Assembly: GCA_031285625.1 (NCBI GenBank)
Contig: JAITVV010000007.1
Span: 1 to 64,000, forward strand
Source of the DNA: Prevotella sp.
GTDB lineage: Bacteria > Bacteroidota > Bacteroidia > Bacteroidales > Dysgonomonadaceae
Length of the DNA stretch: 64,000 bases
Reading direction: 5' to 3'
Made by a program: the position numbers and the translations under genes. Numbering within the stretch: the stretch's first letter is position 1; each line of letters begins with the position of its first letter. The notes beneath the pieces were generated by a model. That model searched no databases and had not been told where the DNA came from. It worked only from the letters and a program-made list of their open reading frames with translations. This document shows, in pieces, positions 24,309-48,538 of this stretch.

Positions 24309-24331
24309 TTTCCTAATTTACCTTTTATAAT

Positions 24332-24363
24332 AAGCCTTTTACATTCCAATGTAAGAGGCTTTT
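24332..24363 (+). terminator. Terminator after int-rhuM-ORF6N
   Basis: AAGCCTTTTACATT-CC-AATGTAAGAGGCTT plus T. Confidence 0.65.
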
Positions 24364-24582
24364 CTTATTTTTGTTCTTTAATCAAAAGAGAATAATGAAT
24401 CTAAGAAGTAAATTGCTGCAACGCTTGGAGATGGAAGATATTAACGAAATAACACTTCTGTATTTTTGAAACAAATAAGGGGATAAAAATGCCCCGATAT
24501 TATTTCTATCTTGTGACTCTTGCTAATATGATTAAAATTCATAGTAACTTAGAGTGACATATATCTATAATAAAAGAGTTTG

Positions 24583-27885: not shown

Positions 27886-28170
27886 ATGAAAAAAAATGTC
27901 GCAGTTATGAGAAACGAAAAAGAAATATTGAAACAAAACTCCCTCACCTCCGGAATCATCATAAAATTGGGCTTGAGGGTCGCAGTTATTGCTCTTTGTG
28001 GGTACTTATTTTATCTGAATGGAATCTCTGTATTTGGTGTTGTTGGTGTGTATATACTTATCCGCAGTATTCTTAAAATCAGACGATTATCTATCAATGT
28101 TGTTTTTTCTCTTCTCTCTATTTTATTTCTGATAATAATAATCTCTCTTATTCTATTATTCATTTTCTAA
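27886..28170 (+). CDS. Small hydrophobic membrane protein
   Basis: 94-aa ORF with hydrophobic segments, first of three tightly spaced genes. Confidence 0.6.
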   Translation: MKKNVAVMRNEKEILKQNSLTSGIIIKLGLRVAVIALCGYLFYLNGISVFGVVGVYILIRSILKIRRLSINVVFSLLSILFLIIIISLILLFIF

Positions 28171-28181
28171 AACCTAAAATC

Positions 28182-28787
28182 ATGGAAAACAATTATAAGA
28201 ATCTCAATAAATACGAAAAATTAGCCGAAATACAAGATTTACGCCTTATGAAAAAAGAACGTTCATATGCAGCTAAGTATCTAAAAGCTTTATGGCAGAA
28301 CGATACAGCCATAATAACGGAATATGAGAGTTTTGGAAACTCTGCCCGACAACTATTAATGAACAGACGAGAATACGATCAGCATCTGTTATTTGGCTTT
28401 ACGGATATTGCATTCAATGAATACGGATGGTTGGAAAGACCTCAGTTCTTAGATGTCGAGCATTTCGAATTTCCACATCGGGACGGATGGGCGGTAAGTA
28501 ATCATATCACTATTGGTAGAGGTATTAATGGCAAATGGTCCTACGGGGCAAGTTATTCATGCAATACCAGTGGAGGTGGTTATGGTTTAGGCGTATGGGG
28601 CAAAATATTTGATGACAGAAAAAGTTGCTTAATATCTGCCTTACAAGAACTAATGGGTAAATTAAAGAAAGTAGACCAAGATAAATATACCGCTCGTGTA
28701 TTGAAGCAAGCAAAAGAGTTATTTGACACGGTTACAGGAAGAAAGGTTATACAGTTGGAATTATTTAAAACGGATAGATATGTATAG
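28182..28787 (+). CDS. Hypothetical protein (Bacteroidetes conjugative-element type)
   Basis: 201-aa ORF, A-rich initiation region, overlaps next start. Confidence 0.75.
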   Translation: MENNYKNLNKYEKLAEIQDLRLMKKERSYAAKYLKALWQNDTAIITEYESFGNSARQLLMNRREYDQHLLFGFTDIAFNEYGWLERPQFLDVEHFEFPHRDGWAVSNHITIGRGINGKWSYGASYSCNTSGGGYGLGVWGKIFDDRKSCLISALQELMGKLKKVDQDKYTARVLKQAKELFDTVTGRKVIQLELFKTDRYV

Positions 28788-28956
28788 GTTATATTTAGGA
28801 TTCAAACTATTAGGCAAATTTGATAGTATATTGGAAGCTAAACAGTTTGCAGAAAAAAGTGGATTGAGTGGGGCATTCAATCTGATTGGGGATAAGTATC
28901 GGGATGGTTGGTATGTGATGATATTTAGAGAACGTAATACTTCGAATCCTTTTTAG
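28780..28956 (+). CDS. Small hypothetical protein (58 aa)
   Basis: ATG 28780 overlaps upstream gene end; MYRLYLGFKLLGKFDSILEAKQFA. Confidence 0.65.
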   Translation: MYRLYLGFKLLGKFDSILEAKQFAEKSGLSGAFNLIGDKYRDGWYVMIFRERNTSNPF

Positions 28957-29876
28957 CGGGCCTGATATGGAGAAAAGAGGAAAAACCCATAGGGTGAACC
29001 TATATTCATATATCTCAATTTCGTAGCGATAATACAATTTTGTTTTATAATTATGAAATTAGTTTTTAAAATTTCTCAAATAACAAGCACCGTGTTTAAC
29101 TATTAATTTTCTTAATTTAGAATTAGGGCTTTCTGCTATACTAATCGGGAGCAATCATATCGGGATCACCTAGTTCTATTTGCTGCATTGATAGAAAAAT
29201 ACATATTTTTTAACAACTTACGACCGATAAAAATTAAATCACATTTTTCGGATTCTAAGAGTTCTTCCATTTGTTAAGTTTCTGTTAAAAGACCAACAAC
29301 TCCTGTTATTAAATCACTTTCTTGTTTGAAATGGATTATTTACGGTAGTGGCTAGGTGGGTATGCCATAGTATTCTTTAAAAATGTGAGAAAAATATGAG
29401 AAGTTTTCAAAGCCAATAGAAAAACATATTTCATTAGCAGGAAGAGATGTGATTCCAAGCATTTATTTTGCTTTATTCAAATCTGTATCTCTCTGATCCA
29501 CATAGCTAATTTTTCGTTGAAAATAAACAAAAAATCATGGTTAAGACCAGATTATTGAAATATGGTTTAGGGGAAGGGAATGAGCAAATGAGATGAGGCA
29601 GTTACTCATTGGATTAACAGTAGTCTTTATTTTTTCATCGGAACGAAGAACAGTAATTTCCGCTTTGGTCAAAAACTCTTTTAAGATATCGTCTTTTAGA
29701 CAAAACATCAAGCTGTCATATATAGTCATTTTCAGAGTTTCCTTTTTCCTCATATTTGATCAGCTGTTGGAAAAACTCCGATCTACTTAAACAACCAGGA
29801 GCGGATATGTTGATTATAAAACTCAAGACTTTGAAACGATTCCTCAAAGATTATATTTAGTCATTAATAGTCAAGC

Positions 29877-29996
29877 CTAGGAGATTTCTATCATACATTT
29901 CTTGAAATATGGGAACGTAAAGGAAGTCGCACTTTGTTTTTAGATAGATTGATTAAACTTCTTGAGGAAACAATGGACGGGTTGGACAATAAATAA
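29877..29996 (+). pseudogene. rteC: C-terminal remnant of an RteC-family regulator
   Basis: Translates LGDFYHTFLEIWERKGSRTLFLDRLIKLLEETMDGLDNK*, resembling the RteC C-terminus; no intact 5' part. Confidence 0.7.
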
Positions 29997-30123
29997 TAGG
30001 AGAATAAACTTTTACTAAAATATACTTGTGAAGAGATTTAGATTAGATAAATAATACCTATATTTGAACCTAGAAGTTAGGCAGATAGAGGTCTGCCAAC
30101 ACAAGACAAAAAGGCATCATTTT

Positions 30124-30146
30124 AATCGTTACGAATTCGTTACGGA
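30124..30146. repeat. Putative integrase arm-type sites, right end of unit 1
   Basis: TCGTTACG at 30126 and 30137, same motif as at 21982/21993. Confidence 0.7.
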
Positions 30147-30231
30147 CTAGCCTTTTGAAAAAGATAAACGATTGATTATTACATCTATTACGAGATAAAA
30201 AAGTGTTCCCGCTCGGATCACTGTAAAACAT

Positions 30232-30266
30232 AAAACTCTGTAAATTAATTATTTACAGAGTTTTTT
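30232..30266 (+). terminator. Terminator after second att site
   Basis: AAAACTCTGTAAAT-TAATT-ATTTACAGAGTTTT. Confidence 0.75.
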
Positions 30267-30471
30267 ATTGATCCTGCAGAATCAGAACCTGAAATTACAT
30301 ATCGAATAGCACTCTTATTATCAGCAATATACTGAAATATCATTTTTACCTTTTAAAACAATAAAAGAAAAAACAATACTAAATCGTTACTGTTACTGTT
30401 TGTCTGTCCTATTTTTTGTTTTCAACAGCCAAGTGAAAACTTCAAACAATCTTATTTAATCTATACTTCTA

Positions 30472-30541
30472 TTCTAATGGTTTTCTAATAATATTCTAAC
30501 AGTTTTCTAACAGCTTGCCATCTATCATAGGCCTACTTTTG
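30472..30541 (+). promoter_or_regulatory. mgtA promoter: 4 x TTCTAA (11-bp period) plus -7 box
   Basis: TTCTAA at 30472, 30483, 30494, 30505; TACTTTTG at 30534. Confidence 0.8.
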
Positions 30542-30576
30542 TGGCAAAAATAATAAACCATTAAAAGTATAAGATT

Positions 30577-33231
30577 ATGAAGCTTTTCAAATGGAAGAGG
30601 AAAAAGAATGCTGCGTATCAGTTCAATAGTGAGAAGCTATTTCTGGCTGCGTCACAATCCAATAAACACATATACTCTTTGCTGAATTCACGAAGGGAAG
30701 GATTATATACAGCCGAAGCTGTGGATAGATTAAAAGACTGTGGCAAAAATGAAATAATATCAGAGAAAAATAACAAGTGGTTTATTCTGCTGATAAAAGC
30801 TTTCATCAACCCGTTTATCGGGATACTGATGTTTTTAGCCGTAATATCCATTATCCTCGATGTCGTTATGGCCGCACCGGACGAAAGGGAGTGGAAGACT
30901 GTAGTTATAATAACTACTATGGTAACTCTTAGCGGCCTGATCCGTTTCTATCAGGAATGGAAATCCAACAGGGCGAGCGAAGCCCTGAAGAAGATGGTAA
31001 ACAATAAGGTATCTGTCTTCCGCAAAGGGATTGATGCTTTTATTGATATACATATAACAAAACTTGTTCCCGGGGATGTTGTATTTCTTTCAGCGGGTGA
31101 TATGATTCCTGCCGATCTGCGTATTACAGAGGCAAAGGATTTGTTTGTAAGCCAGTCCTCTCTTACCGGAGAATCCGATGCTGTAGAAAAGACTCCTAAT
31201 CTCTTAGAACATTCTCCAAAAACAGGAAGCGTCATCGAACTGAACAATATATGCTTCATGGGATCAAATGTCATAAGCGGTTCGGCCAAAGCCATTGTTG
31301 TCAATACAGGAAATGATACATATCTGGGAACCATCGCCAAAAATATTGTAGGTAAAAGGGCCCAGACCAGTTTCGACAGGGGCATCAACAATGTCAGCCT
31401 TCTACTTATACGGTTTATGCTCGTTATGGTGCCTTTTGTTTTCTTTATCAACGGGTTTACAAAGGGGGATTGGTTCGAAGCCTTTCTTTTTGCCATCTCT
31501 GTAGCCGTGGGATTGACCCCTGAAATGCTTCCGATGATCGTTACCTCAAATCTGGCAAAGGGAGCCGTGAAAATGGCAAAGCATAAAACGATTGTCAAGA
31601 ACCTTAATTCCATCCAGAATTTCGGCGCTATGAATATCCTTTGTACGGATAAGACAGGTACGTTAACTCAGGACAAGATAGTACTGGAAAGGTATCTCGA
31701 TGCCGAAGGGAATGATAGTGTAAGAGTATTGCGCCATGCTTATTTCAACAGCTATTTCCAGACGGGCCTGAAAAACCTGATGGATAAGGCCATACTTGCC
31801 CATTGCGAAGAACTTCAATTTCAAAATCTGGGACATGAATATACTAAGGTAGACGAAATCCCTTTCGACTTTAATCGACGGCGCATGTCTGTAGTGATTG
31901 AAGATAAGCGGGGTAAACGACAGATTATAACAAAAGGGGCTATTGAAGAAACAGTGTCTATCTGTAAATATGCCGAGATCGGAGGAGAAGCTGTTCCTAT
32001 AACTGAAAAACTGAAGGAAAAACTTACAGCTATCGGTACCGATCTGAATATGAAAGGTATGAGAGTATTAGGAGTCGCTCAAAAGAGCTGGGTGGAGAAA
32101 GAGCATTCTTTTGCAGTCGAAGACGAATCGGAAATGGTGCTGATTGGTTATCTGGCTTTCCTCGATCCACCAAAAGCTTCTGCCTCGGAAGCTATTAAAG
32201 CCCTGTATGAACATGGAGTGGAAGTAAAAGTGCTCTCGGGGGATAATGCGCTGATAACTAAAAATGTCTGTCAACAAGTCGGTATCAATATTGAAAAAAT
32301 ATTGTTGGGAAACCAAATAGAAGAGATGAGCAGTGAGGAACTTGAAAGGGAAGTTTCCGGGACCAATATTTTCGCTAAACTGACTCCCTTGCAGAAGTCG
32401 AGAATAATACAGATTCTTCAATCGCAGGACAATACGGTCGGCTTTTTAGGTGACGGGATTAATGATGCAGCCGCACTTCGTCAGTCAGATATAGGTATTT
32501 CGGTAGATACCGCAGTGGATATAGCCAAAGAATCGGCGGATATTATCCTGCTCGAAAAAGACTTGATGGTACTGGAAAGAGGGGTTATAGAAGGACGTAA
32601 AATATTTGGAAATATTACCAAATACATCAAGATGACTGCCAGTTCCAACTTTGGAAATATGTTCAGTGTTTTAGTGGCCAGCGCGTTCCTGCCTTTCCTT
32701 CCCATGCTGCCGATACACTTATTAATACAGAATCTGCTTTATGATATTTCACAGATAACCATACCGTTCGACAATGTAGATAAAGAATATTTGCAAAAAC
32801 CGCGCAAATGGGATGCTTCCGACCTCAAACGCTTTATGATACGAATAGGGCCTATCAGTTCCATATTCGATATTGCGACCTATCTGGTGATGTGGTATGT
32901 ATTTAAATGCACTATGCCCGAAGACCAGTCTCTGTTCCAGTCTGGTTGGTTTATCGAAGGGTTACTTTCTCAGACACTCATTGTGCATATGATACGTACA
33001 CGTAAAATACCATTCATACAAAGCCGGGCTTCTCTGCCGGTAATGATAACCACTTTTTCTATCATGGCAATAGGCATCATCATTCCGTTTACAGCTCTTG
33101 GGGCATCTATCGGCTTTACTCCGCTGCCTTGGTCGTACTTCCCGTGGCTGGTAGGAATACTTATGAGCTATTGTTTCCTCATTCAGTTTATCAAGAACTG
33201 GTACGTGCGCAAGTTTCAAAGATGGTTATAA
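30577..33231 (+). CDS. mgtA: Magnesium-translocating P-type ATPase
   Basis: GLTPEMLPMIV, DKTGTLT, DEIPFDFNRRRMSV, GDGIND, KYIKMTASSNFGN. Confidence 0.96.
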   Translation: MKLFKWKRKKNAAYQFNSEKLFLAASQSNKHIYSLLNSRREGLYTAEAVDRLKDCGKNEIISEKNNKWFILLIKAFINPFIGILMFLAVISIILDVVMAAPDEREWKTVVIITTMVTLSGLIRFYQEWKSNRASEALKKMVNNKVSVFRKGIDAFIDIHITKLVPGDVVFLSAGDMIPADLRITEAKDLFVSQSSLTGESDAVEKTPNLLEHSPKTGSVIELNNICFMGSNVISGSAKAIVVNTGNDTYLGTIAKNIVGKRAQTSFDRGINNVSLLLIRFMLVMVPFVFFINGFTKGDWFEAFLFAISVAVGLTPEMLPMIVTSNLAKGAVKMAKHKTIVKNLNSIQNFGAMNILCTDKTGTLTQDKIVLERYLDAEGNDSVRVLRHAYFNSYFQTGLKNLMDKAILAHCEELQFQNLGHEYTKVDEIPFDFNRRRMSVVIEDKRGKRQIITKGAIEETVSICKYAEIGGEAVPITEKLKEKLTAIGTDLNMKGMRVLGVAQKSWVEKEHSFAVEDESEMVLIGYLAFLDPPKASASEAIKALYEHGVEVKVLSGDNALITKNVCQQVGINIEKILLGNQIEEMSSEELEREVSGTNIFAKLTPLQKSRIIQILQSQDNTVGFLGDGINDAAALRQSDIGISVDTAVDIAKESADIILLEKDLMVLERGVIEGRKIFGNITKYIKMTASSNFGNMFSVLVASAFLPFLPMLPIHLLIQNLLYDISQITIPFDNVDKEYLQKPRKWDASDLKRFMIRIGPISSIFDIATYLVMWYVFKCTMPEDQSLFQSGWFIEGLLSQTLIVHMIRTRKIPFIQSRASLPVMITTFSIMAIGIIIPFTALGASIGFTPLPWSYFPWLVGILMSYCFLIQFIKNWYVRKFQRWL

Positions 33232-33245
33232 GAAGATGAATAACA

Positions 33246-33947
33246 ATGATCTCATTCACTATTAACATAGGATTGGCCCTTCTGCTGGGTATGTGCATAG
33301 GGCTCGAACGCCAGTTGCGCCAACGGGTGGCGGGGTTACGCACCAATACGCTGGTATCTCTGGGAGCAGCCATATTTATGGTCATTGCCTGCAAAATAGG
33401 TGGGGATGCACAGGGACGCATCGCATCTTATATCATAAGTGGCATGGGCTTTCTGGGAGCAGGCGTCATTATTAAAGATGGAGCAACAATAAGAGGGCTT
33501 AATACAGCCGCAACCCTTTGGTGTACGGCTGCTATCGGGGCATTCTGTGGACTCGGTTATATCTACGAACCTTTGATAGGAACAGCTTTTATTATTACAG
33601 TGCATCTCATTTTACGCCCCTTATCGAATAGGATAATGAAGTCTACAGCTTTTGTCGATAAGGAAACCGAAGAATATCGCTATAAGTTCGTCACCTGCTG
33701 TAAAGAAAATGTAGAAAACCACATACGAGTATTATTTATCCAGTATATCGGAAACACCAACGACCTGATGCTGAGTTCCCTTACGAGCTACAATGCAGAT
33801 ACTCCTACATCGGCTGTGATAGAGGCAGATATTATCAGCTTCTCTAAACAAGATGCCGCAATAGAAAAGATTGCTTCTTTCCTCACTCTGGAAAGTGGTG
33901 TAACTTCTATTAAGTGGGAAGTAAGCAGCATGGATGCACATTCATGA
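33246..33947 (+). CDS. mgtC: MgtC/SapB family protein
   Basis: IGLERQ, AGLRTNTLV, GMGFLGAGVI, GLNTAATLWC. Confidence 0.93.
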   Translation: MISFTINIGLALLLGMCIGLERQLRQRVAGLRTNTLVSLGAAIFMVIACKIGGDAQGRIASYIISGMGFLGAGVIIKDGATIRGLNTAATLWCTAAIGAFCGLGYIYEPLIGTAFIITVHLILRPLSNRIMKSTAFVDKETEEYRYKFVTCCKENVENHIRVLFIQYIGNTNDLMLSSLTSYNADTPTSAVIEADIISFSKQDAAIEKIASFLTLESGVTSIKWEVSSMDAHS

Positions 33948-33953
33948 AATATA

Positions 33954-34025
33954 GGATTAAGAAAGTCGCAGGTGTGAGAAATTATTAACTCCTACTCATC
34001 GCTTCCCGCTTTCTTAATCCTTTTT
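33954..34025 (+). terminator. Hairpin after mgtC
   Basis: GGATTAAGAAAG ... CTTTCTTAATCC followed by TTTTT. Confidence 0.6.
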
Positions 34026-34093
34026 CTAATAGTTTTCTAATAACTTTCTAAGACTTCTCTAACAGGCTGAAAAGAATCAACTCCCTACTTTTG
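34024..34093 (+). promoter_or_regulatory. RND-1 promoter: 4 x (T/C)TCTAA (11-bp period) plus -7 box
   Basis: TTCTAA at 34024, 34035, 34046, CTCTAA at 34057; TACTTTTG at 34086. Confidence 0.8.
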
Positions 34094-34124
34094 CCGCAAA
34101 AAATAATTCTAAAAACAGAAAAAT

Positions 34125-35234
34125 ATGAAGAACAGGAAACCATTACAGCTCATATTGCTATTGTCGGTAATATGCCTTGCCGCTTGTAAAAGCAAAGATG
34201 TAGAAAATGAAGCGAATGCTTATCAGATAAAGGGAGATACAGTGTATGTAGATAATAACAACATTCTTATTTCGAAAATAAAACTATCAGAGGTAGAAGT
34301 TGAACCCTATTCAAAAGAAGTAATAACGGCAGGAACCGTTCAACCCATCCCTACACAATTTGCTTACGTAGCACCGCCTTTCTCGGGAAGAATTATAAAG
34401 TCATATATTAAATTAGGGCAACGGATTGCGAAAGATACTCCTTTATTTGAAATAAATTCCCCCGATTTTACTGCTGCTCAGAAAGATTTCTATCAGGCTC
34501 AATCGTCGAGGGAACTCGCTCAAAAGGAACTCAAACGTAAAGAGGATTTAATAGAAAACGGAGTCAGCTCGCAAAAAGAACTGGAAGAGGCTTTAAGCGC
34601 CTTACAGATTGCGGAGAAAGAATATGAGAATGCTCATGCGGCTTTGCTGGTCTATCAGGTAAACCCCGAAGATATGGTATTGGGACAATCGCTTATAGTG
34701 CGTTCCCCGATTTCGGGCAATGTAATAGAAAATAACATTGTTACGGGTCAATATATCAAAAACGATTCGGAACCGATTGCCACTATTGCCGACCTTTCGC
34801 AGGTATGGGTTACGGCACAGGTAAAAGAAAAAGATATCCGCTTTATACACGAAGGCGACAGCATAGAAATGTTTATGTCGGCTTATCCCGAAGAAATCAT
34901 CAACGGGAAAGTTTTCCATGTCGAAGAAGCGGTAGACGAAGCTACCCGCTCGATAAAAGTGCTGTCTGTCTGTGATAACAAAGAAGAACTCCTCAAGATA
35001 GGCATGTATACTACCGTGCACTTTCTGGACAAATCGTCCGACTTTGTCCATGTCCCCGAAAAAGCATTGCTGCAAGGAGAGAAAGACAGCTACGTATACG
35101 TGGAATCGGCGCCTAATACATATATCCGCACTCCTGTAGAAGTCGAAAGTTCAAAAAATGGGAAAGCCGTAATCGCAAAAGGACTCAGGGCTGATTGTAA
35201 AATCATTAGTGAAGGAGGGTACTATTTAAAGTAA
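34125..35234 (+). CDS. RND periplasmic adaptor (CzcB/CusB-like) lipoprotein
   Basis: Lipobox LAAC; VRSPISG, IADLSQVWV, VPEKALL. Confidence 0.9.
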   Translation: MKNRKPLQLILLLSVICLAACKSKDVENEANAYQIKGDTVYVDNNNILISKIKLSEVEVEPYSKEVITAGTVQPIPTQFAYVAPPFSGRIIKSYIKLGQRIAKDTPLFEINSPDFTAAQKDFYQAQSSRELAQKELKRKEDLIENGVSSQKELEEALSALQIAEKEYENAHAALLVYQVNPEDMVLGQSLIVRSPISGNVIENNIVTGQYIKNDSEPIATIADLSQVWVTAQVKEKDIRFIHEGDSIEMFMSAYPEEIINGKVFHVEEAVDEATRSIKVLSVCDNKEELLKIGMYTTVHFLDKSSDFVHVPEKALLQGEKDSYVYVESAPNTYIRTPVEVESSKNGKAVIAKGLRADCKIISEGGYYLK

Positions 35235-35332
35235 AAGTCGCAGACCTTTTTATTTACCCGAGAAGTCAAACCACAGGCATGTTGTAATCAGAAAATATGC
35301 CATTTAATTCCAACTTTCATTCAAGTTATATT

Positions 35333-38300
35333 ATGAAAAAAGATTTAATGTTGACGGTTATACAAAAAAGATGGGTGCTGCTGTGCCTATTCATTATACT
35401 CTGTTTCTTCGGTTATTACTCGTGGAAACAACTATCCATCGAAGCTTATCCTGATATTGCGGATGTTACTTCACAGGTGGTTACCCAAGTGCCAGGATTG
35501 GCTGCCGAAGAGGTGGAGCAACAAATAACGATTCCTCTCGAAAGGGCTTTAAACGGGTTGCCGGGTATGCACGTTATGCGAAGCAAAAGCACTTTCGGGC
35601 TATCGATGATAACTATCGTTTTCGAAGATGGTACAGAAGATTATTGGAGTCGCCAGAGAGTACAGGAAAGGCTCGACGAGGTGGAACTACCTTATGATGC
35701 CGTACCAGGACTAGACCCGTTAACCTCTCCTACAGGAGAGATTTACCGCTATATTATCGAAAGTGACAAACACTCGTTAAGGGAACTAACCGATTTGCAG
35801 AACTGGGTAATTATTCCACGTATCAAGCAGGTTTCGGGAGTAACTGATGTCAGCAATTTCGGAGGGATAACTACACAATATCAGGTAGAAATTGACCCAC
35901 AAAAACTTGAACAATATCATATCTCATTAGACCAAGTCATGGAAGCCATCGAGAACAATAATTCCAATGTCGGAGGCAGTGTTCTCAATCGGGGTGACCT
36001 CGGATATGTGGTAAGGGGAATCGGGCTTATTTCCGATTTGGAAGACTTAGGCAAAATTGTTGTCAGTTCCGAAAACGGAGTACCTGTTTTTCTTAATGAT
36101 ATAGGTAAACTAAAATACGGAAATCTCGAACGTAAAGGTGTTTTCGGATATACCGACCGCAAACGTGAGTATTCGGAAAGTATAGAGGGTATTGTCCTTT
36201 TATTGAAGCATGAAAATCCTTCTATTGTGTTGGAGGGTATCAAAAATGCAGTGGATGAACTGAACAGCGAAACACTTCCCGAAGGTGTGAATATTCACGT
36301 ATTTCTCGACCGTACCCAGCTGGTCGATACAACACTCCACACTGTATCGCGTACACTGCTCGAAGGTATGATTCTGGTTATTATCGTACTCATTGTTTTT
36401 CTCGGAAGTTGGCGCGGGGCACTGCTCGTAGCCGTTACGATTCCCATATCGTTACTTATTGCATTCATACTGATGCATCTCACGAATATTCCTGCAAACC
36501 TTTTATCACTGGGGGCTATCGATTTCGGTATCATAGTAGATGGTGCCATTGTGATGATGGAAACCATACTAAAGAAGAGGGAAGACCATCCGCAGGAATA
36601 TCTGGAAGAAAAAAGTATTTCGAAACGTGTAATAGAAGTTGCTAAACCGATTGCATTTGCCACTATAATTATCATCACGGCCTATTTGCCTCTTTTCGCA
36701 TTCGAACGTGTCGAACGTAAATTGTTCACTCCGATGGCATTTACGGTAAGTTATGCTTTAATCGGCGCTTTGCTGGTAGCCTTGTTTCTCATTCCGGGAA
36801 TCGGATATGCGCTTTACCGCAAACCGAAAAAGATATATCATAATAAATGGCTCGAAAAACTGACCTTGAAATATTCGGACGCAGTAAGCAAAATACTGAA
36901 AAAACCGAAAAAAGTAATCGTATCCGTCGCTGTCATTTTTGTTTGTGCCATCGGACTGTCTGTCTTTGTTGGAAAAGATTTCCTACCTGTGTTGGACGAA
37001 GGTTCTATCTGGATGCAGGTAAATCTCCCACCGGGAATATCAGTGGAAAAATCGAGGGAGCTATCCGATACACTACGGCAACGGACTATGAAGCATGGTG
37101 AAGTCACCTACATTGCCGTTCAGGCAGGGCGTAACGATGACGGTACAGACCCTTTCACTCCATCACATTTCGAGGTTTCCATCGGTATCAAGCCGTACAG
37201 TGAATGGCCGAGCGGAAAAACCAAGAACGATCTGATAGACGAATTAGCAAAAGAATATGAGTCACTGGCAGGCTTCCGTGTCGGATTCAGTCAGCCGATG
37301 ATCGACGGAGTGATGGATAAGATTGCAGGTGCGCATAGTGAACTGGTAATCAAAGTGTATGGCGACGAATTCAAAGAAACCCGACGGATTGCCGAAGATA
37401 TTATGAATACCCTGAAAAACGTGGAAGGTGCCGTCGATTTGGATATCGACCAGGAACCGCCCCTGCCTCAATTGCAGGTACATATGAACAGGGATGCCAT
37501 TGCGCGTTACGGGTTGAATGTTTCGGATGTGAGTAACCTGATTGAGGTGGCAATAGGAGGCAAAGCCATATCCCAGATTTATCAGAACGACAGAGTATAT
37601 GATATTACCTGCAAGTACGATGAAAATTCGCGCAACACCCCCGAAAAGATTGCTGCGCTGATGCTGACCTCCGCTACAGGAGCTAAGATACCGTTATCAC
37701 AGGTAGCCGATATAAAATTAAGTACAGGTGAAAGTACCATCACACGCGAAATGAACAAACGCCATCTGACCGTAAAGTTAAATCTTCGTGGGCGTGACCT
37801 CGGTTCTTTTCTTGAAGATGCCCAACATTCAATAGAAAAAAAATATAAAATACGACCACGAAAAATATCATATAAAGTGGGGCGGACAGTTTGAAAATCA
37901 ACACCGCGCCTATTCACGCTTAGCTGTTATTGTTCCTTTGGCTCTGGCAATTATGTTTATCTTGCTGTATGCCGCTTTCGGAAAATTCCGTCAGGCAGGA
38001 TTGGTTTTGACCATTGTTCCGTTGGCTTTGTTCGGCGGCATGCTCGCCCTCAATCTAAGAGGAATGACGCTGAACGTATCTTCTGCAGTCGGTTTTATCG
38101 CTTTGTTCGGTGTCGCCATTCAAAACGGCGTGATTATGATTTCGCATATCAATGGTTTACGCAAAGACGGAATGCCATTACTAAAAGCGGTTTCTGATGG
38201 TACACGTCATCGTTTCCGCCCGATACTGATGACTGCGACAGTTGCTATATTGGGATTATTGCCTGCTTCTCTTGCTACGGGTATAGGTTCTGATGTACAG

Positions 38301-38438
38301 CGTCCCCTTGCCACCGTTATCGTATACGGTCTGATGTTTTCGACTATTATTACCCTGTTTGCCTTACCTGTCTTTTATTACATGATAGAAAATAAAGCAG
38401 AAAAATCAAAAAAAGAATCGGAATATGAAAATAAATAA
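35333..38438 (+). pseudogene. CusA/CzcA heavy-metal RND transporter with one extra A in run 37836-37843
   Basis: Two ORFs join if one A is removed (IEKNIKYDHEKYHIKWGGQFENQ); DFGIIVDGAIVMME, RPILMT. Confidence 0.85.
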
Positions 38439-39678
38439 AGTACAATCCATAATAGTAATGAGTATTCTCATCCTGATGAATTTTGCGGCCTTTGCACAGT
38501 CGCAGAATTCTATGGATGGAATGAATCCAATTTTATCTTTCCACGAATATTTAAATCAGGTGGGAAAAAAGAACCTCAATTTTCTGGCTGAAAAATACAA
38601 TGTAGATATTGCCGAAGCCGAAATGATTGCACAAAAAGTGCTTCCCGACCCCGATTTGGAGTTTGAAGCGGCGGACGAAACTTTTACTCTGGGATTAGCT
38701 TATAACCTTGAACTGGGTAATAAACGCGGTGCGAGAGTACGTCTTGCCAAAAGCCAGTCGGAATTAGAAAAGCTGGTTCTCGAATATTATTATCAGGAAT
38801 TGCGTGCCGAGGCTGCCAATTTGTTTCTGGATGCCATACAACAGCGGGAGCTGCTGACTGTGAAGAAAAGCTCTTATGAATATATGCTGCAATTGAGCCA
38901 TTCGGACAGTATCCGTTTTCGTTTGGGAGAAATAACCGAAACCGATGCCCGTCAATCGAAACTGGAAGCAGCCACTTTACTCAATGATGTTTTTGAACAG
39001 GAAGCTGTATATAAATCGACATTGGTGTTACTCAATCAATTTATGGGCAGAACCTCTGATACCCTGAATATTCCTTCTGGAAAGTGGGATACATTGAATA
39101 GGGAATATATACTTCCTGAGCTTACGTCCTTAGGACTAACTACTCGTATAGATTTGTTTGCTGCAAACAAAAACATTGAAGTGGTAACGAACCAACATAA
39201 ACTGGTAAAAGCCGAACGAAAAATGGATTTAGGTTTGTCACTTAATTACGAACGGGATTGGCATGGATTCCTTCCGCCATCCCGTTCATTTACGGCAGGT
39301 ATTTCTATTCCGCTTAAGTTCTCCAACCTGAATAAAGGCGCAGTGAAAGCGGCACAATTCGGGATAGAACAATCGAAAATCCAGCAACAGAATATGGAGT
39401 TGCAAATCAAATCCGAAATATCACAGGCATTTTTTCATTTCGAGGCTGCCAAGAAAAAATTAAGGCAGTACCAGTCAGGACTATTAGACGAATCCCATAA
39501 AATACTGGATGGTATGGTTTATAAATACAAACGCGGCGAAACAAGCATTATGGAAGTCCTGATTGCTCAACGTACCTATAATGAAGTTCAGGAGCAATAT
39601 CTGGAAACCATGAAAGGATATGTTTCGTCTTTAGTCGAACTGCAAAAAACATGTGGTATATGGGACATTGAGTTCTAA
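38425..39678 (+). CDS. TolC/CzcC outer membrane efflux protein
   Basis: Signal peptide, coiled-coil OEP repeats, YKRGETSIMEVL. Confidence 0.88.
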   Translation: MKINKVQSIIVMSILILMNFAAFAQSQNSMDGMNPILSFHEYLNQVGKKNLNFLAEKYNVDIAEAEMIAQKVLPDPDLEFEAADETFTLGLAYNLELGNKRGARVRLAKSQSELEKLVLEYYYQELRAEAANLFLDAIQQRELLTVKKSSYEYMLQLSHSDSIRFRLGEITETDARQSKLEAATLLNDVFEQEAVYKSTLVLLNQFMGRTSDTLNIPSGKWDTLNREYILPELTSLGLTTRIDLFAANKNIEVVTNQHKLVKAERKMDLGLSLNYERDWHGFLPPSRSFTAGISIPLKFSNLNKGAVKAAQFGIEQSKIQQQNMELQIKSEISQAFFHFEAAKKKLRQYQSGLLDESHKILDGMVYKYKRGETSIMEVLIAQRTYNEVQEQYLETMKGYVSSLVELQKTCGIWDIEF

Positions 39679-39717
39679 AAAGTTTATCTTTGCTTTATAG
39701 CCTTTATTCTATTTGGT

Positions 39718-40407
39718 ATGAAAAAAATATTGGTCATAGAAGATGAAAAACGGATAGCCGAAATTTTGCAGAAAGGCCTTTATGAATTCGGCTTCGAAGT
39801 TAGTGTCGCTTTCGATGGAGATACAGGTAAAAGACTCATTAATTCGAATTCTTACGACCTCATCATTACGGACATCATTCTTCCTCATCACAATGGCTTT
39901 GAACTGACAAAGGTAATTAAGGATAAGAACCCTCATACGCCTGTAATCATGCTGACGGCACTCGGTGCGACAGACGATAAGCTGGACGGATTCGATGCTG
40001 GAGCCGACGATTATATGGTAAAACCGTTTGACTTACGGGAATTGAATGCACGGATAAATGTGCTGTTGAAAAGACATCCAAACCAGAACGAAAATGTTGT
40101 AATGAATGAACTGAAGTATGATAGTTTAACTATGCAACTGGACACCAGAAAGGTCTTTCGTTCAGGAAAAGAAATAAAACTAACCCCCAAAGAATTTAAC
40201 CTGCTGAAATACCTGCTCGAAAATCCCGAAAGGGTTTTGCCCCGTTCCGAAATAGCCGAAAAAGTATGGGACACGCATTTCGATACGGGTACTAATTTTA
40301 TAGATGTGTATATCAATTACCTGAGAGGAAAAATTGATAAGGCTTTCGATAAGAAACTCATTCATACTAGTCCCGGCATCGGATTTATTCTAAAATCGGA
40401 AGAATGA
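39718..40407 (+). CDS. OmpR-family response regulator (CusR/CzcR-like)
   Basis: VIEDE, DIILP, GADDYMVKPF, IDVYINYLRGKID; TATCTTTG at 39685. Confidence 0.93.
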   Translation: MKKILVIEDEKRIAEILQKGLYEFGFEVSVAFDGDTGKRLINSNSYDLIITDIILPHHNGFELTKVIKDKNPHTPVIMLTALGATDDKLDGFDAGADDYMVKPFDLRELNARINVLLKRHPNQNENVVMNELKYDSLTMQLDTRKVFRSGKEIKLTPKEFNLLKYLLENPERVLPRSEIAEKVWDTHFDTGTNFIDVYINYLRGKIDKAFDKKLIHTSPGIGFILKSEE

Positions 40408-41774
40408 AGATAAAGACCAAAATAGCGCTTCGATACTCGATTGTCACCGCCATATTAATGGCGGTTTTCGCTACTATTGTCTATTTTGTTTCAGCTCACG
40501 ACAGGGAAATCGAATTTTATGATGACCTCTACAAAGAAGGCGTATCGAAAGCTAATTTATATTTCGAAGCGAAAGCCAGTCCCGAAACCATGCATTCCAT
40601 CTATAAGAACAACATAGAATATATCGACGAAGTGGAAGTCGCCATTTACAATACGCAGTTCAGCCTTTTGTATCATGACGCAAAAGATATAGATATTGTA
40701 AAGGAAACGCCTGACCTTATCACAAGAGTTATCAATTCAAAAAAGAACATTGATTTTTATGTGGAGAAATATCAGGCAGTCGGTTTTATCTTTCATCACA
40801 ATAATTCTCAGTATATAGTTACGGCAGCAGCTTTTGACGGTTACGGTTATAATAAATTGCACAGGCTTTTTGTCAATTTACTTATCCTTACCCTCCTTTC
40901 TATAATTACTTCTTTTATTGTCGGTTACTATCTGGCAAAGAGAGCCCTGAAACCTGTATCGGAAATCTCAAACAAGATGAAAGAGATAACCGCCAATAAT
41001 CTGGATTTAAGATTACTCAGCTACAATGAGAAAGACGAATTCGGAGAATTGGCGACTTCCTTCAACAAAGCTCTGGATATTATAGAATCTTCTTTCGAAT
41101 CGCAGAAAATGTTTGTCAGTAATGTGTCGCATGAATTGCGGACTCCGCTGGCTACCTTAATCGGTGAAATTGATTATGCTTTGTTGAAAAAGCGTACCAT
41201 TGAAGAATATATCCATACACTCCAAACATCGAAGCAAGATACTGTACGCCTGATAAAATTGGTGAACGGTTTACTCGATTTGGCCAAAGCAAGTTATGAT
41301 GAAAGCAAAATATCGATGGGAGAAGTACGTATAGACGAGATACTCCTCGATGCGAGGGAAGAGGTTTTAAGGTTGAATCCTGATTACAAAATCGATTTAC
41401 AATTTACACATCCTACAGAAAACGATTCCGAATTAATTGTTTCAGGTAATGAATACCTTTTGAAAACCGCTTTCTCTAACCTAATGGAGAATAATTGCAA
41501 ATTTTCTGCCAATAGAACATCGACCGTGAAAATATATTCAGTGGAAAACTCATTGCATATAAGCTTCTCCGATACGGGTATTGGTATCCCGTCTGAAGAT
41601 TTGGAGAATATCTTTAAACCATTCTACAGGGGAAGAAACAAAGAATTCATTGATGGCAACGGTATAGGTCTGGCTCTGGTCGATAAAGTTATCAAGATTC
41701 ATAAAGGAAAGATAGGAATAGATTCAGTTATTGGCGTCGGCACGGTTTTTAATATTGAATTCTTTGTCCTTTGA
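40404..41774 (+). CDS. HAMP sensor histidine kinase
   Basis: SHELRTP, NLMENNCKF, DTGIGI, GIGLAL; ATGA overlap with regulator. Confidence 0.93.
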   Translation: MKIKTKIALRYSIVTAILMAVFATIVYFVSAHDREIEFYDDLYKEGVSKANLYFEAKASPETMHSIYKNNIEYIDEVEVAIYNTQFSLLYHDAKDIDIVKETPDLITRVINSKKNIDFYVEKYQAVGFIFHHNNSQYIVTAAAFDGYGYNKLHRLFVNLLILTLLSIITSFIVGYYLAKRALKPVSEISNKMKEITANNLDLRLLSYNEKDEFGELATSFNKALDIIESSFESQKMFVSNVSHELRTPLATLIGEIDYALLKKRTIEEYIHTLQTSKQDTVRLIKLVNGLLDLAKASYDESKISMGEVRIDEILLDAREEVLRLNPDYKIDLQFTHPTENDSELIVSGNEYLLKTAFSNLMENNCKFSANRTSTVKIYSVENSLHISFSDTGIGIPSEDLENIFKPFYRGRNKEFIDGNGIGLALVDKVIKIHKGKIGIDSVIGVGTVFNIEFFVL

Positions 41775-41860
41775 ATATAAAGTAGTAAATTATATTCCAA
41801 AGAATACAAGTCAACTCTAAGCCAAAAGTGGCATTTTGAGAGACAATCCAAAGACAGAAA

Positions 41861-42200
41861 CTGTTACTAAATCGTTACTATTTGGATTGCATATATTAAG
41901 TAAATGACTGACAATTATCAATTTAAAATATAAATTGGTTGATCCATATGGGATCACTAGGCGAACCGAACCTTCGGGGACAGTTCAAAGCCAAAAGCAC
42001 AGGAAAGTCTTCTAAAGTATTAGTTTAGAAGACCTTTTTATTTAATAAATTCTCCTGAGAGACTTCACCAAGACATAAAAAGCCTTCAAAAAATCGAAAA
42101 TAACTACTAAATCACTACTGCTTTAGTTTCGAGTAAAAACAGTAGTTGTCTTTGGATAAAAACTCTCATTTACTGCTCGTTTTGACAGTCAAGAGAAAGA
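41861..42200. repeat. Degenerate att junction (arm-like sites, core, hairpin)
   Basis: CTGTTAC/TCGTTAC 41861/41872, core 41940-41958, hairpin 42004-42037, CCAAGACATAA 42068 identical to 21938. Confidence 0.65.
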
Positions 42201-42219
42201 CATAAGTCTTTATTTAATT

Positions 42220-42286
42220 TTCTAATCTATTTTTAATCTACCTATAATCCTCATCTAATATAACTCAAAGAAACGTCTAATCTTTG
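42220..42286 (+). promoter_or_regulatory. RND-2 promoter with 11-bp-periodic TAATC repeats
   Basis: TAATC at 42223, 42234, 42245, TAATA at 42256; imperfect -7 AATCTTTG at 42279. Confidence 0.55.
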
Positions 42287-42323
42287 GGAAATATATTTGC
42301 ATCATAAAAATTGTATGCGTGCA

Positions 42324-43613
42324 ATGAAAAAATATTCTCTTTTTATTCTTTTGTTTTTCAATATACTAGCCGGATATTCCCAAGAACAGCAGTCACAGTC
42401 ACTGAAATTGAGTCGTGAAGAAATCGAGGTACTATTTCTGAAAAACAATCTCCAGCTTATAGCCGAAAAATTTAATATAGACATAGCCGATGCAGCCATA
42501 GTACAGGCTAGACTATGGGACAACCCCACTTTATCAATAGAAGGAATGAACCTATGGAGTACAAAATCGCAACGAGATGAAATAGAAGATATGGTAACCT
42601 CATCTTTTGTTAAAAACACAGAGTTCAGCATTGAACTAAGCCAGTTAATCCTAACTGCCAATAAACGAGGGAAACTGATTAGGCGGGAGAAAGTCTCGAA
42701 AGAAATCGCCAGACAAGAATTTGAGAAGATATTGCGCGGGCTGAAAGCCGAACTGAGAAAATCAATTTACGAAACACAATATTTACAAGCCTATCTCAAT
42801 ATACTGATGAATCAGCGTCAATCAGTAAACCAATTAGTCGAATCTCATAGAAAACAAGTTCTGCAGGGAAACATTGCAAAAAGCGAACTGCTTCGTCTGC
42901 AATCGTCCCTTCTCGATCTGGAAAACGAAATAAATGACACTCAACTCGATTTGGAAGAGCAGAGAAAAACTTTAAAAATCTTATTGAATATAGACCCGTT
43001 TACTCATATTGAGGTTGCAGATGATCCGGATACTGAAAAAAATCCTGATAATATCATACTTTCAGATTTATTGTATATAGCGGACGAATCACGCCCCGAT
43101 ATGAAACAATACAAACTTCAAACGCAATATTATCAAAGATCACTGGATTATGAAAAATCACAAAGAATCCCCAATATAAACATCAGTGCCAGCTATGACC
43201 GTTACGGGGGAGTATGGAAAGACTTTGTAGGGTTTGGAGTAAGCATAGACCTTCCTTTTTTCAATCGGAACCAAGGAAATATCAAAGCAGCAAAATTAAG
43301 TATAGACCAAAGCCAGTATTTATCACAACAGCAGCACAGCATTATCCGCCACGAAATTACTACCGCTTATAACAGCTATCTCCATACATACAATTTCTAT
43401 AAGAAAATAGAGAACAACAGTTTGTTTTCCGAATTAGACGGCATGCTGGACGTATATACCAAAAATCTTCAGTACAGGAATATCGGTATGCTCGAATATG
43501 TAGATTTTATGGATACATACAAATCAAGTAAGCAGACGATGCTTACCGCTAAAAAGAATGTAAGTATACAGTTCGAAGAATTACAATATACAGTAGGAAC
43601 AGATATAAAATAA
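42324..43613 (+). CDS. TolC/CzcC outer membrane efflux protein
   Basis: Signal peptide MKKYSLF..., ARLWDNP, DLPFFNRNQGNI. Confidence 0.88.
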   Translation: MKKYSLFILLFFNILAGYSQEQQSQSLKLSREEIEVLFLKNNLQLIAEKFNIDIADAAIVQARLWDNPTLSIEGMNLWSTKSQRDEIEDMVTSSFVKNTEFSIELSQLILTANKRGKLIRREKVSKEIARQEFEKILRGLKAELRKSIYETQYLQAYLNILMNQRQSVNQLVESHRKQVLQGNIAKSELLRLQSSLLDLENEINDTQLDLEEQRKTLKILLNIDPFTHIEVADDPDTEKNPDNIILSDLLYIADESRPDMKQYKLQTQYYQRSLDYEKSQRIPNINISASYDRYGGVWKDFVGFGVSIDLPFFNRNQGNIKAAKLSIDQSQYLSQQQHSIIRHEITTAYNSYLHTYNFYKKIENNSLFSELDGMLDVYTKNLQYRNIGMLEYVDFMDTYKSSKQTMLTAKKNVSIQFEELQYTVGTDIK

Positions 43614-43616
43614 GCC

Positions 43617-44714
43617 ATGATTAAAAAACATATCATAAAAACATTCTGGATTATGGGTACTATCTCCATGATATCCTGTTTGGGAGGCGATACCCCAAAA
43701 GAAGAAGATATAGAAGCGGGTAAAATCAATGAGACATTTCTCAAAAGTGTAAAAACAACAAAAGCCATATTAAGCAACCGAAATGAAGAGCTTACCCTCA
43801 CTGGTAAAGTCGAATATGATCCCGATAAGATTATTAATTATGTGTCTTTGGTAAACGGTATTGCAGCCCGCACATATTTTTCTTTGGGAGACAAAGTACA
43901 GAAAGGTCAGACCTTACTTGATATAAGGAGTGCTGACCTGAGCTCCTTGCAATCGGAAGCTGTCACCTCCGAATCGGAAGTAAAGATTGCACAACGCGAA
44001 TTACAGACGTCCCAATCCATGTACGAAGACAATATATTATCCGAAAAGGAATTGCTGGAAGCTCAGGCTAAACTGAAACAGGCTCAGGCAACACACAACA
44101 AGATACAGAATGACATCTCTGTACTTGGTACCAATAAAGGAAATGGAGCATTTTCTATCAAATCGCCCATGACTGGATATATCGTAGCTAAAAACGTTTC
44201 TTCAGGAAGTACTATATCCACCGACAGTGACCCGCTTTTCACGGTAGCCGACCTAAGTACCGTATGGATAACAGCCAATATATATGCCAGCAACCTGCAA
44301 TTTGTAAAGGAAGGCATGGAGGTTGCGATAACTACTTTGTCTTACCCCGGCGAGATATTTCAAGGCAGAATAAATGTACTTTCGCAAGTCTTTGATCCCG
44401 AAGAAAAAGTATTGAAGGCACGTATTGTCATGAGTAATAAAGAGCTAAAGTTCAAACCCGAAATGTCGGTTGTAATCCGACTGAAAAACGAAACGAATGC
44501 TCAATTTGTCTCAGTACCTTCCGATGCCATCGTTTTTGATGATGACCGCTATTTTGTCATAGTACAGGATGCAACTGGTAATTTCAAAATAAAGGAAATC
44601 AAACTGGAGGGGCACAATAATAAAACTACCTATATCGCTTCCGGTTTGTTGGAGGGCGAAGAGGTAGTAACAAAGAATCAATTACTCATATACTCAGGCT
44701 TAAAAGAAGATTAA
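43617..44714 (+). CDS. RND periplasmic adaptor
   Basis: Lipobox MISC; IKSPMTG, VADLSTVWI, FKPEM. Confidence 0.9.
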   Translation: MIKKHIIKTFWIMGTISMISCLGGDTPKEEDIEAGKINETFLKSVKTTKAILSNRNEELTLTGKVEYDPDKIINYVSLVNGIAARTYFSLGDKVQKGQTLLDIRSADLSSLQSEAVTSESEVKIAQRELQTSQSMYEDNILSEKELLEAQAKLKQAQATHNKIQNDISVLGTNKGNGAFSIKSPMTGYIVAKNVSSGSTISTDSDPLFTVADLSTVWITANIYASNLQFVKEGMEVAITTLSYPGEIFQGRINVLSQVFDPEEKVLKARIVMSNKELKFKPEMSVVIRLKNETNAQFVSVPSDAIVFDDDRYFVIVQDATGNFKIKEIKLEGHNNKTTYIASGLLEGEEVVTKNQLLIYSGLKED

Positions 44715-44717
44715 TCC

Positions 44718-47816: not shown

Positions 47817-47854
47817 TCCAAAATTCTTATCTTTATAATTCGAATATTCTTATT

Positions 47855-48538
47855 ATGGAATTATTATTAATAGAAGATAATAGCCGGATCAGCGAATTCG
47901 TTATAAAGGGACTGGAAGAAAGTGGTTTCGCTGTGGTTTTGGCCGATAACGGAGTTGAAGCCCGTAGACTTATCGGACAGAAAGAATGGGATCTTATCTT
48001 GTTGGATATAATGTTGCCTGATATTGATGGCATAGAATTATTACAATATACCCGTTATAAAAAGATCCAGACTCCTATACTTGTTATCAGTGCTCTGGGT
48101 GATCCCGATGATAAGATAAAAGCTCTCGATTATGGGGCTGATGATTATCTGACTAAACCCTTTTTATTACGCGAATTGATTGCTCATATAAATGCCCTTA
48201 CACGTAGGGCAAAGCTAAAATATGACGAATCTTCCGATATTCTGGAATGTGATAACCTAAAAATTTATCTGGACAGGCATCGCGTTGAAAGAGGAGGAAA
48301 AGAGATAAGACTCACATTACAAGAATTTAAGCTACTCAGACTACTGATAGAGAATGAGAATAAAGTATTATCTCGCACACAGATTTTGGATACGGTATGG
48401 GGGGTAAACTATGATACCAATACCAATGTAGTGGATGTGTATATTTCTTATCTGAGAAATAAGATAGATACGGAAGGATATACAAAGTTGATAAAGACTA
48501 TAAAAGGACGTGGTTATATGATACAATCTCAAGAATAG
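47855..48538 (+). CDS. OmpR-family response regulator
   Basis: LLDIMLP, GADDYLTKPF, NVVDVYISYLRNKID. Confidence 0.93.
   Translation: MELLLIEDNSRISEFVIKGLEESGFAVVLADNGVEARRLIGQKEWDLILLDIMLPDIDGIELLQYTRYKKIQTPILVISALGDPDDKIKALDYGADDYLTKPFLLRELIAHINALTRRAKLKYDESSDILECDNLKIYLDRHRVERGGKEIRLTLQEFKLLRLLIENENKVLSRTQILDTVWGVNYDTNTNVVDVYISYLRNKIDTEGYTKLIKTIKGRGYMIQSQE

Follow-up and report, generated by a model that had tools for sequence, protein, structure and literature searches.

What connects the gene for a magnesium importer with the operon for a heavy-metal efflux pump, and which protein would act on both? This question is raised by a stretch of 64,000 nucleotides of Prevotella sp. DNA (assembly GCA_031285625.1, contig JAITVV010000007.1, positions 1 to 64,000 of the forward strand; the whole stretch is called the window below), in which mgtA and mgtC precede the operon of a resistance-nodulation-division (RND) pump and the genes of an OmpR-type two-component system. 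An earlier reading of the sequence, the original prediction, had placed four TTCTAA hexamers at 11-bp spacing upstream of both mgtA and the RND adaptor gene, followed by a common -7 box 29 bp after the start of the last hexamer. This arrangement was confirmed at both promoters. Upstream of mgtA (Box 1), the hexamers start at positions 30472, 30483, 30494, and 30505, and all four are exact; upstream of the adaptor gene (Box 2), TTCTAA starts at 34024, 34035, and 34046, but the fourth hexamer, at 34057, is CTCTAA (23 of 24 bases). The sequence TACTTTTG begins 29 nt after the start of the last hexamer in both cases, and the ATG of mgtA lies about 35 nt past its -7 box. The conserved repeat unit is the heptamer (T/C)TCTAAT, and the array consists of four units of the form (T/C)TCTAAT-N4. 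The sequence comparisons described below suggest that the array is probably the binding site of the response regulator encoded at 39718 to 40407, which would activate the mgtA-mgtC and pump operons under metal stress. The two operons would very probably be switched on together by the shared box.

The arrays stood out clearly from chance repeats. A pattern of two repeats, searched with one mismatch allowed, matched the window 7 times. Shuffled sequences averaged 1.47 matches and peaked at 5, and none of 100 shuffles reached the count of the window. A 40-bp weight matrix, which had been trained solely on 10 sites from related loci and excluded the window sites, scored the two boxes at 50 to 56 bits, whereas the top score in 20 shuffles was 8.9 bits. 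Besides the two boxes and their register shifts, no position in the 64 kb reached 8 bits. TAnnTTTG and TTTG are the -7 and -33 consensus elements of Bacteroidetes promoters. TAnnTTTG by itself was not enriched in the window (79 found versus 76 expected), and its weight comes from its invariance and fixed spacing across loci. A sigma-70-type promoter scan of the window was uninformative for this phylum (41 found versus 33 expected). A site at 42220, before the second pump operon, was rejected as a third box: it matched 20 of 24 bases by hexamer count, yet scored below 8 bits with the matrix, and its distance to the nearest TAnnTTTG (42292) did not fit. We treated it as a related box of a paralogous regulator or as a chance match.

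It had been proposed to look for the motif in orthologous loci. Using the adaptor protein as a query against genome contigs, we retrieved eight related loci, from Dysgonomonas termitidis (L001), a Dysgonomonas metagenome-assembled genome (MAG; L002), five Bacteroides sp. records (L003 to L007), and a Bacteroidaceae MAG (L008). Their adaptor proteins are 57 to 83% identical, and the window proteins are 79 to 92% identical to their counterparts in L001 and L002, which, together with a G+C content of 36.8%, marks the source of the window as Dysgonomonas-like. The array and TACTTTTG were found with the same ungapped spacing before the orthologous adaptor gene in all eight loci, and the mgtA-upstream array is also kept in both Dysgonomonas relatives. 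Across the 12 aligned Bacteroidales promoters, TACTTTTG is present without exception and at identical spacing. The TCTAA core is kept in 47 to 48 of the 48 repeat units, and position 7 is a T in 33 of them. No such conservation is seen in the spacers and upstream flanks (mean column identity, 38%) or in the leaders. In the 152,746 bp of the eight loci, the matrix detected 10 high-scoring sites (36.6 to 63.3 bits), all located before the adaptor gene or mgtA; register shifts aside, the next-best position scored below 0 bits. Together with the window and a plasmid locus of Emticicia (L010) described below, this amounts to 13 sites in 10 loci. The array is, as judged from this phylogenetic footprint, a conserved cis-element and not a product of chance. 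Since conservation is restricted to the repeat cores and the -7 box, a recent duplication is ruled out. The leaders of the pump operons are about 30 nt long except in two loci: in L006 (9790 to 9950), about three tandem copies of a unit of about 24 nt separate the -7 box from the start codon, and L008 carries a shorter insert.

The original prediction had named the adjacent two-component system as the reader of the box. The genes of this system stand at the end of the pump operon in the window, L001, and L002, and TATCTTTG, possibly a basal internal promoter in the 39 nt ahead of the regulator gene, is kept in all three of these Dysgonomonas-type loci. The catalytic residues of regulator and kinase are kept: the acidic-pocket, phospho-acceptor, and lysine positions E8, D9, D52, and K102 are shared without exception by the three regulators of the window and their orthologues in L001 and L002, with D52 presumably serving as the phospho-acceptor. 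The recognition helix TGTNFIDVYINYLR is near-invariant in the best 120 regulator homologues (64 to 100% identity), of which the few with named organisms belong to Dysgonomonas, Prevotella, Azobacteroides, Alistipes, and Parabacteroides.

The pairing of regulator and box was also found outside Bacteroidales. Plasmid pEMTOL01 of Emticicia oligotrophica (Cytophagales), retrieved from the plasmid collection, encodes a regulator that is 60% identical to that of the window and carries the identical helix HFDTGTNFIDVYINYLR; the kinase is 45% identical. The end of the kinase gene overlaps the series TTCTAAT, TTCTAAT, TTTTAAA, and CTCTAAC, which scored 39.5 bits with the Bacteroidales-trained matrix. 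Its last hexamer begins 29 nt ahead of TAATTTTG, and farther downstream lies a pump operon in C-B-A order whose RND protein is just 42% identical to that of the window. Positions 1 to 28675 of this locus form a conjugative plasmid region that encodes at least two RND pumps and four two-component pairs of the OmpR type, and only one pair has an RR1-type helix together with a TCTAAT box. Homologous regulators with altered helices (48 to 54% identical) from Spirosoma, Persicobacter, and Hymenobacter (L011 to L013) had no box within 9 kb; the best matches reached 16 of 24 bases and at most 0.6 bits. Because the pairing recurs in Emticicia and the altered-helix homologues are boxless, sensor, regulator, and box appear to travel together as a unit with exchangeable outputs, although the sample is small. 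The adjacent two-component system is thus, on comparative grounds, the best candidate reader: the identical-helix regulator beside the box in Emticicia speaks for it, but the adjacency seen in the window is not general, since no response regulator was found within 10 kb at the six Bacteroides and Bacteroidaceae loci (L003 to L008).

Paralogous pumps lacked the box. This was the case for a B-A-C pump of P. distasonis (L009; plasmid collection, adaptor query) and, by matrix, for the two further modules of the window, each comprising an RND pump with an OmpR-type regulator and a kinase, which lie in tandem at 42297 to 49893 (plus strand, module 2) and 49918 to 57508 (minus strand, module 3). Relative to the first regulator, those of modules 2 and 3 show 46% and 36% identity, respectively. 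Module 2 is associated with TAAT-containing 11-bp repeats at 42220 to 42262. Module 3 has a repeat of its own, two copies of TCTTAAGCAAA at 55441 to 55462, located 28 nt before TAATTTTG, which fits the notion of one box type per regulator.

Next to the pump, mgtA is the second putative target. The MgtA protein scored 1304.8 bits with the TIGR01524 equivalog model (cut-off, 610.75), and the MgtC-family protein matched PF02308 and PF21770 above their cut-offs, with NF011912 at 186.9 bits remaining under its cut-off of 255. The hairpin behind mgtC has a predicted energy of -27.4 kcal/mol (z-score, -5.57), and none of 200 shuffles was equally stable. mgtA is linked to the box at 4 of the 10 box-bearing loci: it stands behind a separate box in the window, L001, and L002, while in L008 mgtA-mgtC stands in the pump operon, directly behind the outer-membrane gene, with no box, TAnnTTTG, or hairpin in between. 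Judged by gene order, the association of mgtA with the pump under the shared box has taken two independent forms. An intact mgtC is present in the window and L008; L001 retains a remnant, and L002 lacks the gene. The predicted linking of mgtA to the pump by a shared box was therefore supported, but mgtC is no stable member. A query with MgtA against the plasmid collection gave no Bacteroidota among the 25 matches listed of 203 records, nor among the 10 commonest of 55 genera. In L008, the outer-membrane gene and mgtA are separated by a 46-codon open reading frame (ORF; 15528 to 15668) whose stop and the start codon of mgtA overlap. Read by eye, the N-terminal half of this ORF is hydrophobic and its tail strongly basic; the ORF may encode a small membrane protein or be a coupling ORF.

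The mgtA leader is short, at about 30 nt, as had been predicted. An Rfam search over 28000 to 44000 at an E value of ≤1 revealed no riboswitch match and just a weak small RNA match on the other strand. A short leader without an Rfam match argues for control at initiation, unlike in enterobacterial mgtA. The weak match, to the Bacteroides small RNA BTnc005 (23 bits versus a gathering threshold of 175; E = 0.1), is overlapped by a perfect hairpin with a 14-bp stem at 30232 to 30264, which is terminator-like on both strands. Control by an AraC-type gene divergent from mgtA was considered and rejected: the gene is fragmented in the window and missing at that position in L001. On the minus strand, 29340 to 30343 holds a string of short ORFs including the C terminus of an AraC-type helix-turn-helix protein, apparently a broken AraC-family gene, and no ORF of at least 80 amino acids is present between 28788 and 30576.

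The efflux system had been described as Czc/Cus type. It does belong to the CusA/CzcA family of RND pumps, but by score the permease is ZneA-like rather than Cus-like (1095.7 bits with ZneA [4k0e] versus about 448 bits with CusA). The N-terminal piece of the permease reaches the TIGR00914 cut-off alone (715.3 versus 701.45 bits), and the C-terminal piece adds 181.2 bits. In the alignment to ZneA, residues E136, D172, D602, E610, D654, and D658 are kept, E599 is replaced by D, and the DFG..DGA motif of transmembrane helix 4 (TM4) is present; we take these ZneA positions to be metal-site residues. On this basis the pump is a ZneA-like, predicted divalent-cation exporter and not Cus-like. The permease reading frame (about 1030 amino acids) is uninterrupted in L001, L002, L005, and L008 and split in the window, with the break falling in a homopolymer of eight A residues (37836 to 37843); L001 and L002 have a shorter, interrupted run there. 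A different peculiarity was seen in two Bacteroides loci (L006, 11088 to 15461; L007, 11114 to 15487), in which no stop codon separates the RND ORF from that of the outer-membrane factor, giving one continuous frame of 1457 amino acids. A G+C-rich palindromic insert takes the place of the stop region seen in L004 and L008, and the outer-membrane factor retains, in frame, its lipoprotein-like start.

OmpR-family regulators bind direct repeats about one helical turn apart. At the array, one monomer would occupy each helical turn, and two tandem dimers would fill the four units, ending about 7 bp upstream of the would-be -33 element. The spacer in the -33 region of the box promoters is not conserved and shows partial matches to TTTG, such as CTTG at 30514, which fits an activator-dependent promoter. 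Because the -7 box is invariant and the -33 region is not, the phosphorylated regulator most likely activates transcription by recruiting RNA polymerase, in analogy to PhoB and its pho boxes. Transcription is predicted to start at 30546 to 30550 and at 34098 to 34102. The first promoter would drive mgtA-mgtC, closed by the hairpin terminator, and the second the ZneBAC-like pump followed by the regulator and kinase genes. The position of the two-component genes inside the operon that they would activate implies positive feedback, possibly on top of basal expression from the internal promoter. The kinase would sense a periplasmic cue via its PDC/Cache-like domain. Upon metal stress, metal would be expelled and Mg2+ import raised, the latter offsetting the competition of Zn, Co, and Ni at transporters and at Mg2+ sites. 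In line with this, MgtA is reported to be inhibited by Zn2+ and Co2+, to be able to admit Ni2+, and to interact with zinc homeostasis, and MgtA-type pumps are described as participants in transition-metal traffic (PMC12041740; PMC5069749).

Several observations weigh against this account. No response regulator was found within 10 kb of the box at any of the six Bacteroides and Bacteroidaceae loci (tblastn, E ≤ 0.001), which means that the reader is encoded elsewhere in these organisms or is another protein. The covariation of helix and box rests on few loci, four with the box (window, L001, L002, and L010) and three without. The best model for the regulator, TIGR01387 (CztR/SilR/CopR), scored 222.1 bits and thus below its cut-off of 279.2, and the kinase likewise scored below the cut-off of TIGR01386 (CztS/SilS/CopS; 194.2 versus 292.55 bits). 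The sensors of CusS, CzcS, and PhoQ were not among the fold matches listed for the kinase. mgtA is linked at just 4 of the 10 box-bearing loci, with mgtC intact in 2. Finally, with its RND gene split, the efflux half may be inactive in this organism, or the split may reflect a homopolymer assembly error.

The cue itself was approached through the sensor. A structural model of kinase residues 1 to 230 (pLDDT, 86.5) gave PDB fold matches that, as listed, comprised a WalK integrative model and Cache, PAS, and KinD-type sensors, none of them informative on the ligand. In a PDB sequence search, no match covered kinase residues 1 to 180, and the match to PhoQ was weak and confined to the catalytic domain (E = 3e-4). 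The PhoQ sensor likewise has a PDC-type fold. An alignment of 63 rows (the query and 62 homologues) showed conserved acidic residues in the periplasmic domain (E76, E78, D92, D97, E101, and D145); an H-x4-E motif near the first transmembrane helix was discarded as a sensor feature, as it is not conserved in the family. An excess of a divalent transition metal is the most likely cue, with Zn2+ as the first guess, since a heavy-metal-type pump is the output conserved throughout and mgtA is linked in no more than 4 of 10 loci; Mg2+ import would then be a protective extra.

The same wiring could also answer to another signal, namely Mg2+ limitation or depletion of envelope cations in the manner of PhoPQ, with MgtA as the primary output and the pump expelling Zn, Co, and Ni that leaked in. 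The separate full box of mgtA in the three Dysgonomonas-type loci, its place inside the pump operon in L008, and the acidic residues of the sensor are in line with such a signal. The ability of MgtA to admit Ni2+ fits as well, as does the report that mgtA mutants of P. putida gain cobalt tolerance (PMC12041740). In C. metallidurans, MgtA and MgtB are described as part of a metal-uptake network (PMC5069749). In B. thetaiotaomicron, BT0988 (mgtA) and the adaptor-RND-TolC operon BT4693-95, a possible orthologue of the pump operon, fall together in low iron (PMC10434189). BT4693-95 also falls upon addition of a small RNA. Against a Mg2+ signal, 6 of the 10 box-bearing loci have no mgtA nearby and the sole adjacent output in Emticicia is the pump, so that the pump looks like the ancestral output. 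Furthermore, no match to the PhoQ sensor was obtained by sequence or among the fold matches listed, the box is unlike the PhoP box, and a long Mg2+-sensing leader is missing. No tested feature (sensor matches, leader, or models) identified the PhoPQ-like system that the original prediction had offered as an option, and we regard a low-Mg2+ signal as rather unlikely.

Still less probable is a reading of the box by a different, unlinked regulator, such as a global protein of the OmpR/PhoB type, with the local two-component system being a passenger or a member of the regulon. The six Bacteroides and Bacteroidaceae loci that carry the box without a nearby regulator would be accounted for in this way, and a layout of four 7 + 4 units that replaces the -35/-33 element is also that of pho boxes. 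Pfam searches on 41 of the 76 ORFs of these loci, a set that omitted the pump, mgtA, and mgtC ORFs as well as ORFs repeating the L004 synteny by size, revealed no regulator besides a LuxR-type protein in L003. The box, however, abuts the genes of an identical-helix regulator in another order, Cytophagales. The helix is near-invariant among the 120 closest homologues, altered-helix homologues lack the box, and the regulator scores below the cut-off of the Bacteroidetes PhoB model (178.7 versus 270). The same Pfam searches found an orphan kinase with PAS, HisKA, and HATPase domains immediately 5' of the box in L006 (8158 to 9687) and L007 (8355 to 9863), which is absent from the other four loci. 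That the arrays have no regulatory role, being chance repeats of an AT-rich window (36.8% G+C, with 48 TTCTAA counting both strands) or a recently duplicated or mobile promoter cassette, is scarcely credible in view of the shuffle and matrix controls and of the 13 sites, whose conservation in nothing but repeat cores and -7 box contradicts duplication.

The circuit proposed here, a metal-responsive regulator acting on both operons, has counterparts in characterized systems. Two-component control of heavy-metal RND pumps via tandem direct repeats is textbook knowledge. The pump resembles that of ZneSR-ZneBAC from Cupriavidus metallidurans CH34 (HME3a RND) in permease score, TM4 motif, and acidic residues. 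Differences are the phylum, the location of the two-component genes downstream in the same operon, and regulator and kinase scores under the heavy-metal subfamily cut-offs. In the window a Mg2+ importer shares the operator, and no such description of zne was found in the literature examined. The unusual B-A-C order with a two-component system is also reported for zneSRBAC (PMC7060636). In CzcRS-CzcCBA (Pseudomonas aeruginosa and Cupriavidus) and CusRS-CusCFBA (E. coli), an OmpR-type two-component system likewise stands beside the heavy-metal RND pump that it presumably activates, and the window regulator shares about 45% identity with CzcR, CusR, and SilR. In contrast to these systems, the window shows B-A-C instead of C-B-A order, a Bacteroidetes-type promoter, mgtA in the proposed regulon, and an operator of four direct heptamers instead of the palindromic CusR/CopR-type box.

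PhoP/PhoQ of Salmonella and E. coli offers a parallel on the side of mgtA and mgtC, on which an OmpR-family regulator would in both cases act via direct repeats one helical turn apart, with autoregulated two-component genes. However, no similarity of the sensor to PhoQ was found by sequence or among the fold matches listed, and the box sequence differs from that of PhoP. The leader of about 30 nt holds neither riboswitch nor leader peptide, and the conserved output across loci is the efflux pump instead of Mg2+ uptake. The closest likeness in operator layout is to the pho boxes bound by PhoB in E. coli, which consist of four tandem units of 7 bp with a 4-bp spacer and replace the upstream promoter element. 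Because the array abuts the core promoter as pho boxes do, activation by polymerase recruitment is suggested. The regulator and the repeat sequence differ from those of PhoB, and the promoter is of the sigma-ABfr type with a -7 box. By analogy, the module would work as a CzcRS/ZneRS-type circuit that uses a pho-box-like operator layout and has recruited MgtA, which is a well-founded hypothesis. New are the operator sequence, its spread over two Bacteroidota orders, and the recruitment of mgtA.

We found no description of the module in the open-access and bioRxiv full-text literature searched; a TTCTAAT match in a paper on RprY of P. gingivalis proved to be a primer. To our knowledge, next to nothing has been described of how Bacteroidota regulate Mg2+ uptake. 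More tentatively, and as a reading that we hold to be less likely than not, we envisage a Bacteroidota-wide sensor-regulator family with a fixed helix and a fourfold TCTAAT operator that hard-wires a Mg2+ importer and a divalent-metal exporter to one signal in Dysgonomonas and some Bacteroidaceae. Mg2+ import and transition-metal export would then form a single response of the cell, in which imported Mg2+ counteracts metal stress or the pump proofreads a leaky Mg2+ importer. Either would be a genetically encoded version of the idea of a "flow equilibrium" between uptake and efflux. The module would also take the place of PhoPQ in the control of mgtA, in a phylum for which control of that type is not known. 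The analysis offers a precise operator with its matrix, a named candidate regulator, predicted transcription starts, and the physiological hypothesis that Mg2+ import is co-induced with Zn-type efflux. It also opens a route to regulon prediction for one two-component family in Bacteroidales and Cytophagales, including gut Bacteroides. The features of the locus are compiled in Table 1.

Table 1. Features of the mgtA, pump, and two-component locus in the window
Feature	Coordinates	Strand	Basis
Box 1, upstream of mgtA	30472..30510	+	Four TTCTAA hexamers, 11-bp period; 50.0 bits
-7 promoter box of mgtA, TACTTTTG	30534..30541	+	Fixed spacing after Box 1
mgtA, magnesium-translocating P-type ATPase, 884 amino acids	30577..33231	+	TIGR01524, Pfam P-type ATPase domains
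MgtC-family gene, 233 amino acids	33246..33947	+	PF02308 and PF21770
Long hairpin followed by T run, likely terminator between mgtA-mgtC and pump promoter	33953..34021	+	Fold energy
Box 2, upstream of RND adaptor gene	34024..34062	+	Three TTCTAA and one CTCTAA, 11-bp period; 56.1 bits
-7 promoter box of pump operon, TACTTTTG	34086..34093	+	Fixed spacing after Box 2
RND periplasmic adaptor (membrane fusion protein)	34125..35234	+	PF16576; TIGR01730, 158 bits
ZneA-like HME-RND permease, two ORFs (35297-37894 and 37938-38438)	35297..38438	+	TIGR00914, 715.3 and 181.2 bits
Outer-membrane efflux factor (TolC family)	38425..39678	+	PF02321
TATCTTTG, possible basal internal promoter of two-component genes	39685..39692	+	In 39-nt gap before regulator gene
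OmpR/PhoB-type response regulator, proposed box reader	39718..40407	+	PF00072 (95.9 bits) and PF00486 (85.3 bits), above cut-off
Membrane histidine kinase with periplasmic PDC/Cache-like sensor, HAMP, HisKA, and HATPase	40404..41774	+	Domain matches and model
Terminator-like hairpin after kinase gene, likely end of pump/two-component operon	42007..42033	+	Hairpin

The neighborhood of the locus in L001 differs from that in the window, which suggests that the block of mgtA, pump, and sensor moves as a unit. An apparent integrated island lies just upstream of the metal locus of the window (21774 to 27348), comprising tRNA-Arg(TCT), a tyrosine integrase (22130 to 23368), and a large helicase with a DUF2726 nuclease-like end (24583 to 27348). 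Farther upstream, 9 kb from mgtA, the minus strand carries a CNNM/CorC-type gene (19712 to 21076; CBS and CorC_HlyC domains) of a family linked to Mg2+/Co2+ efflux, with no box near it.

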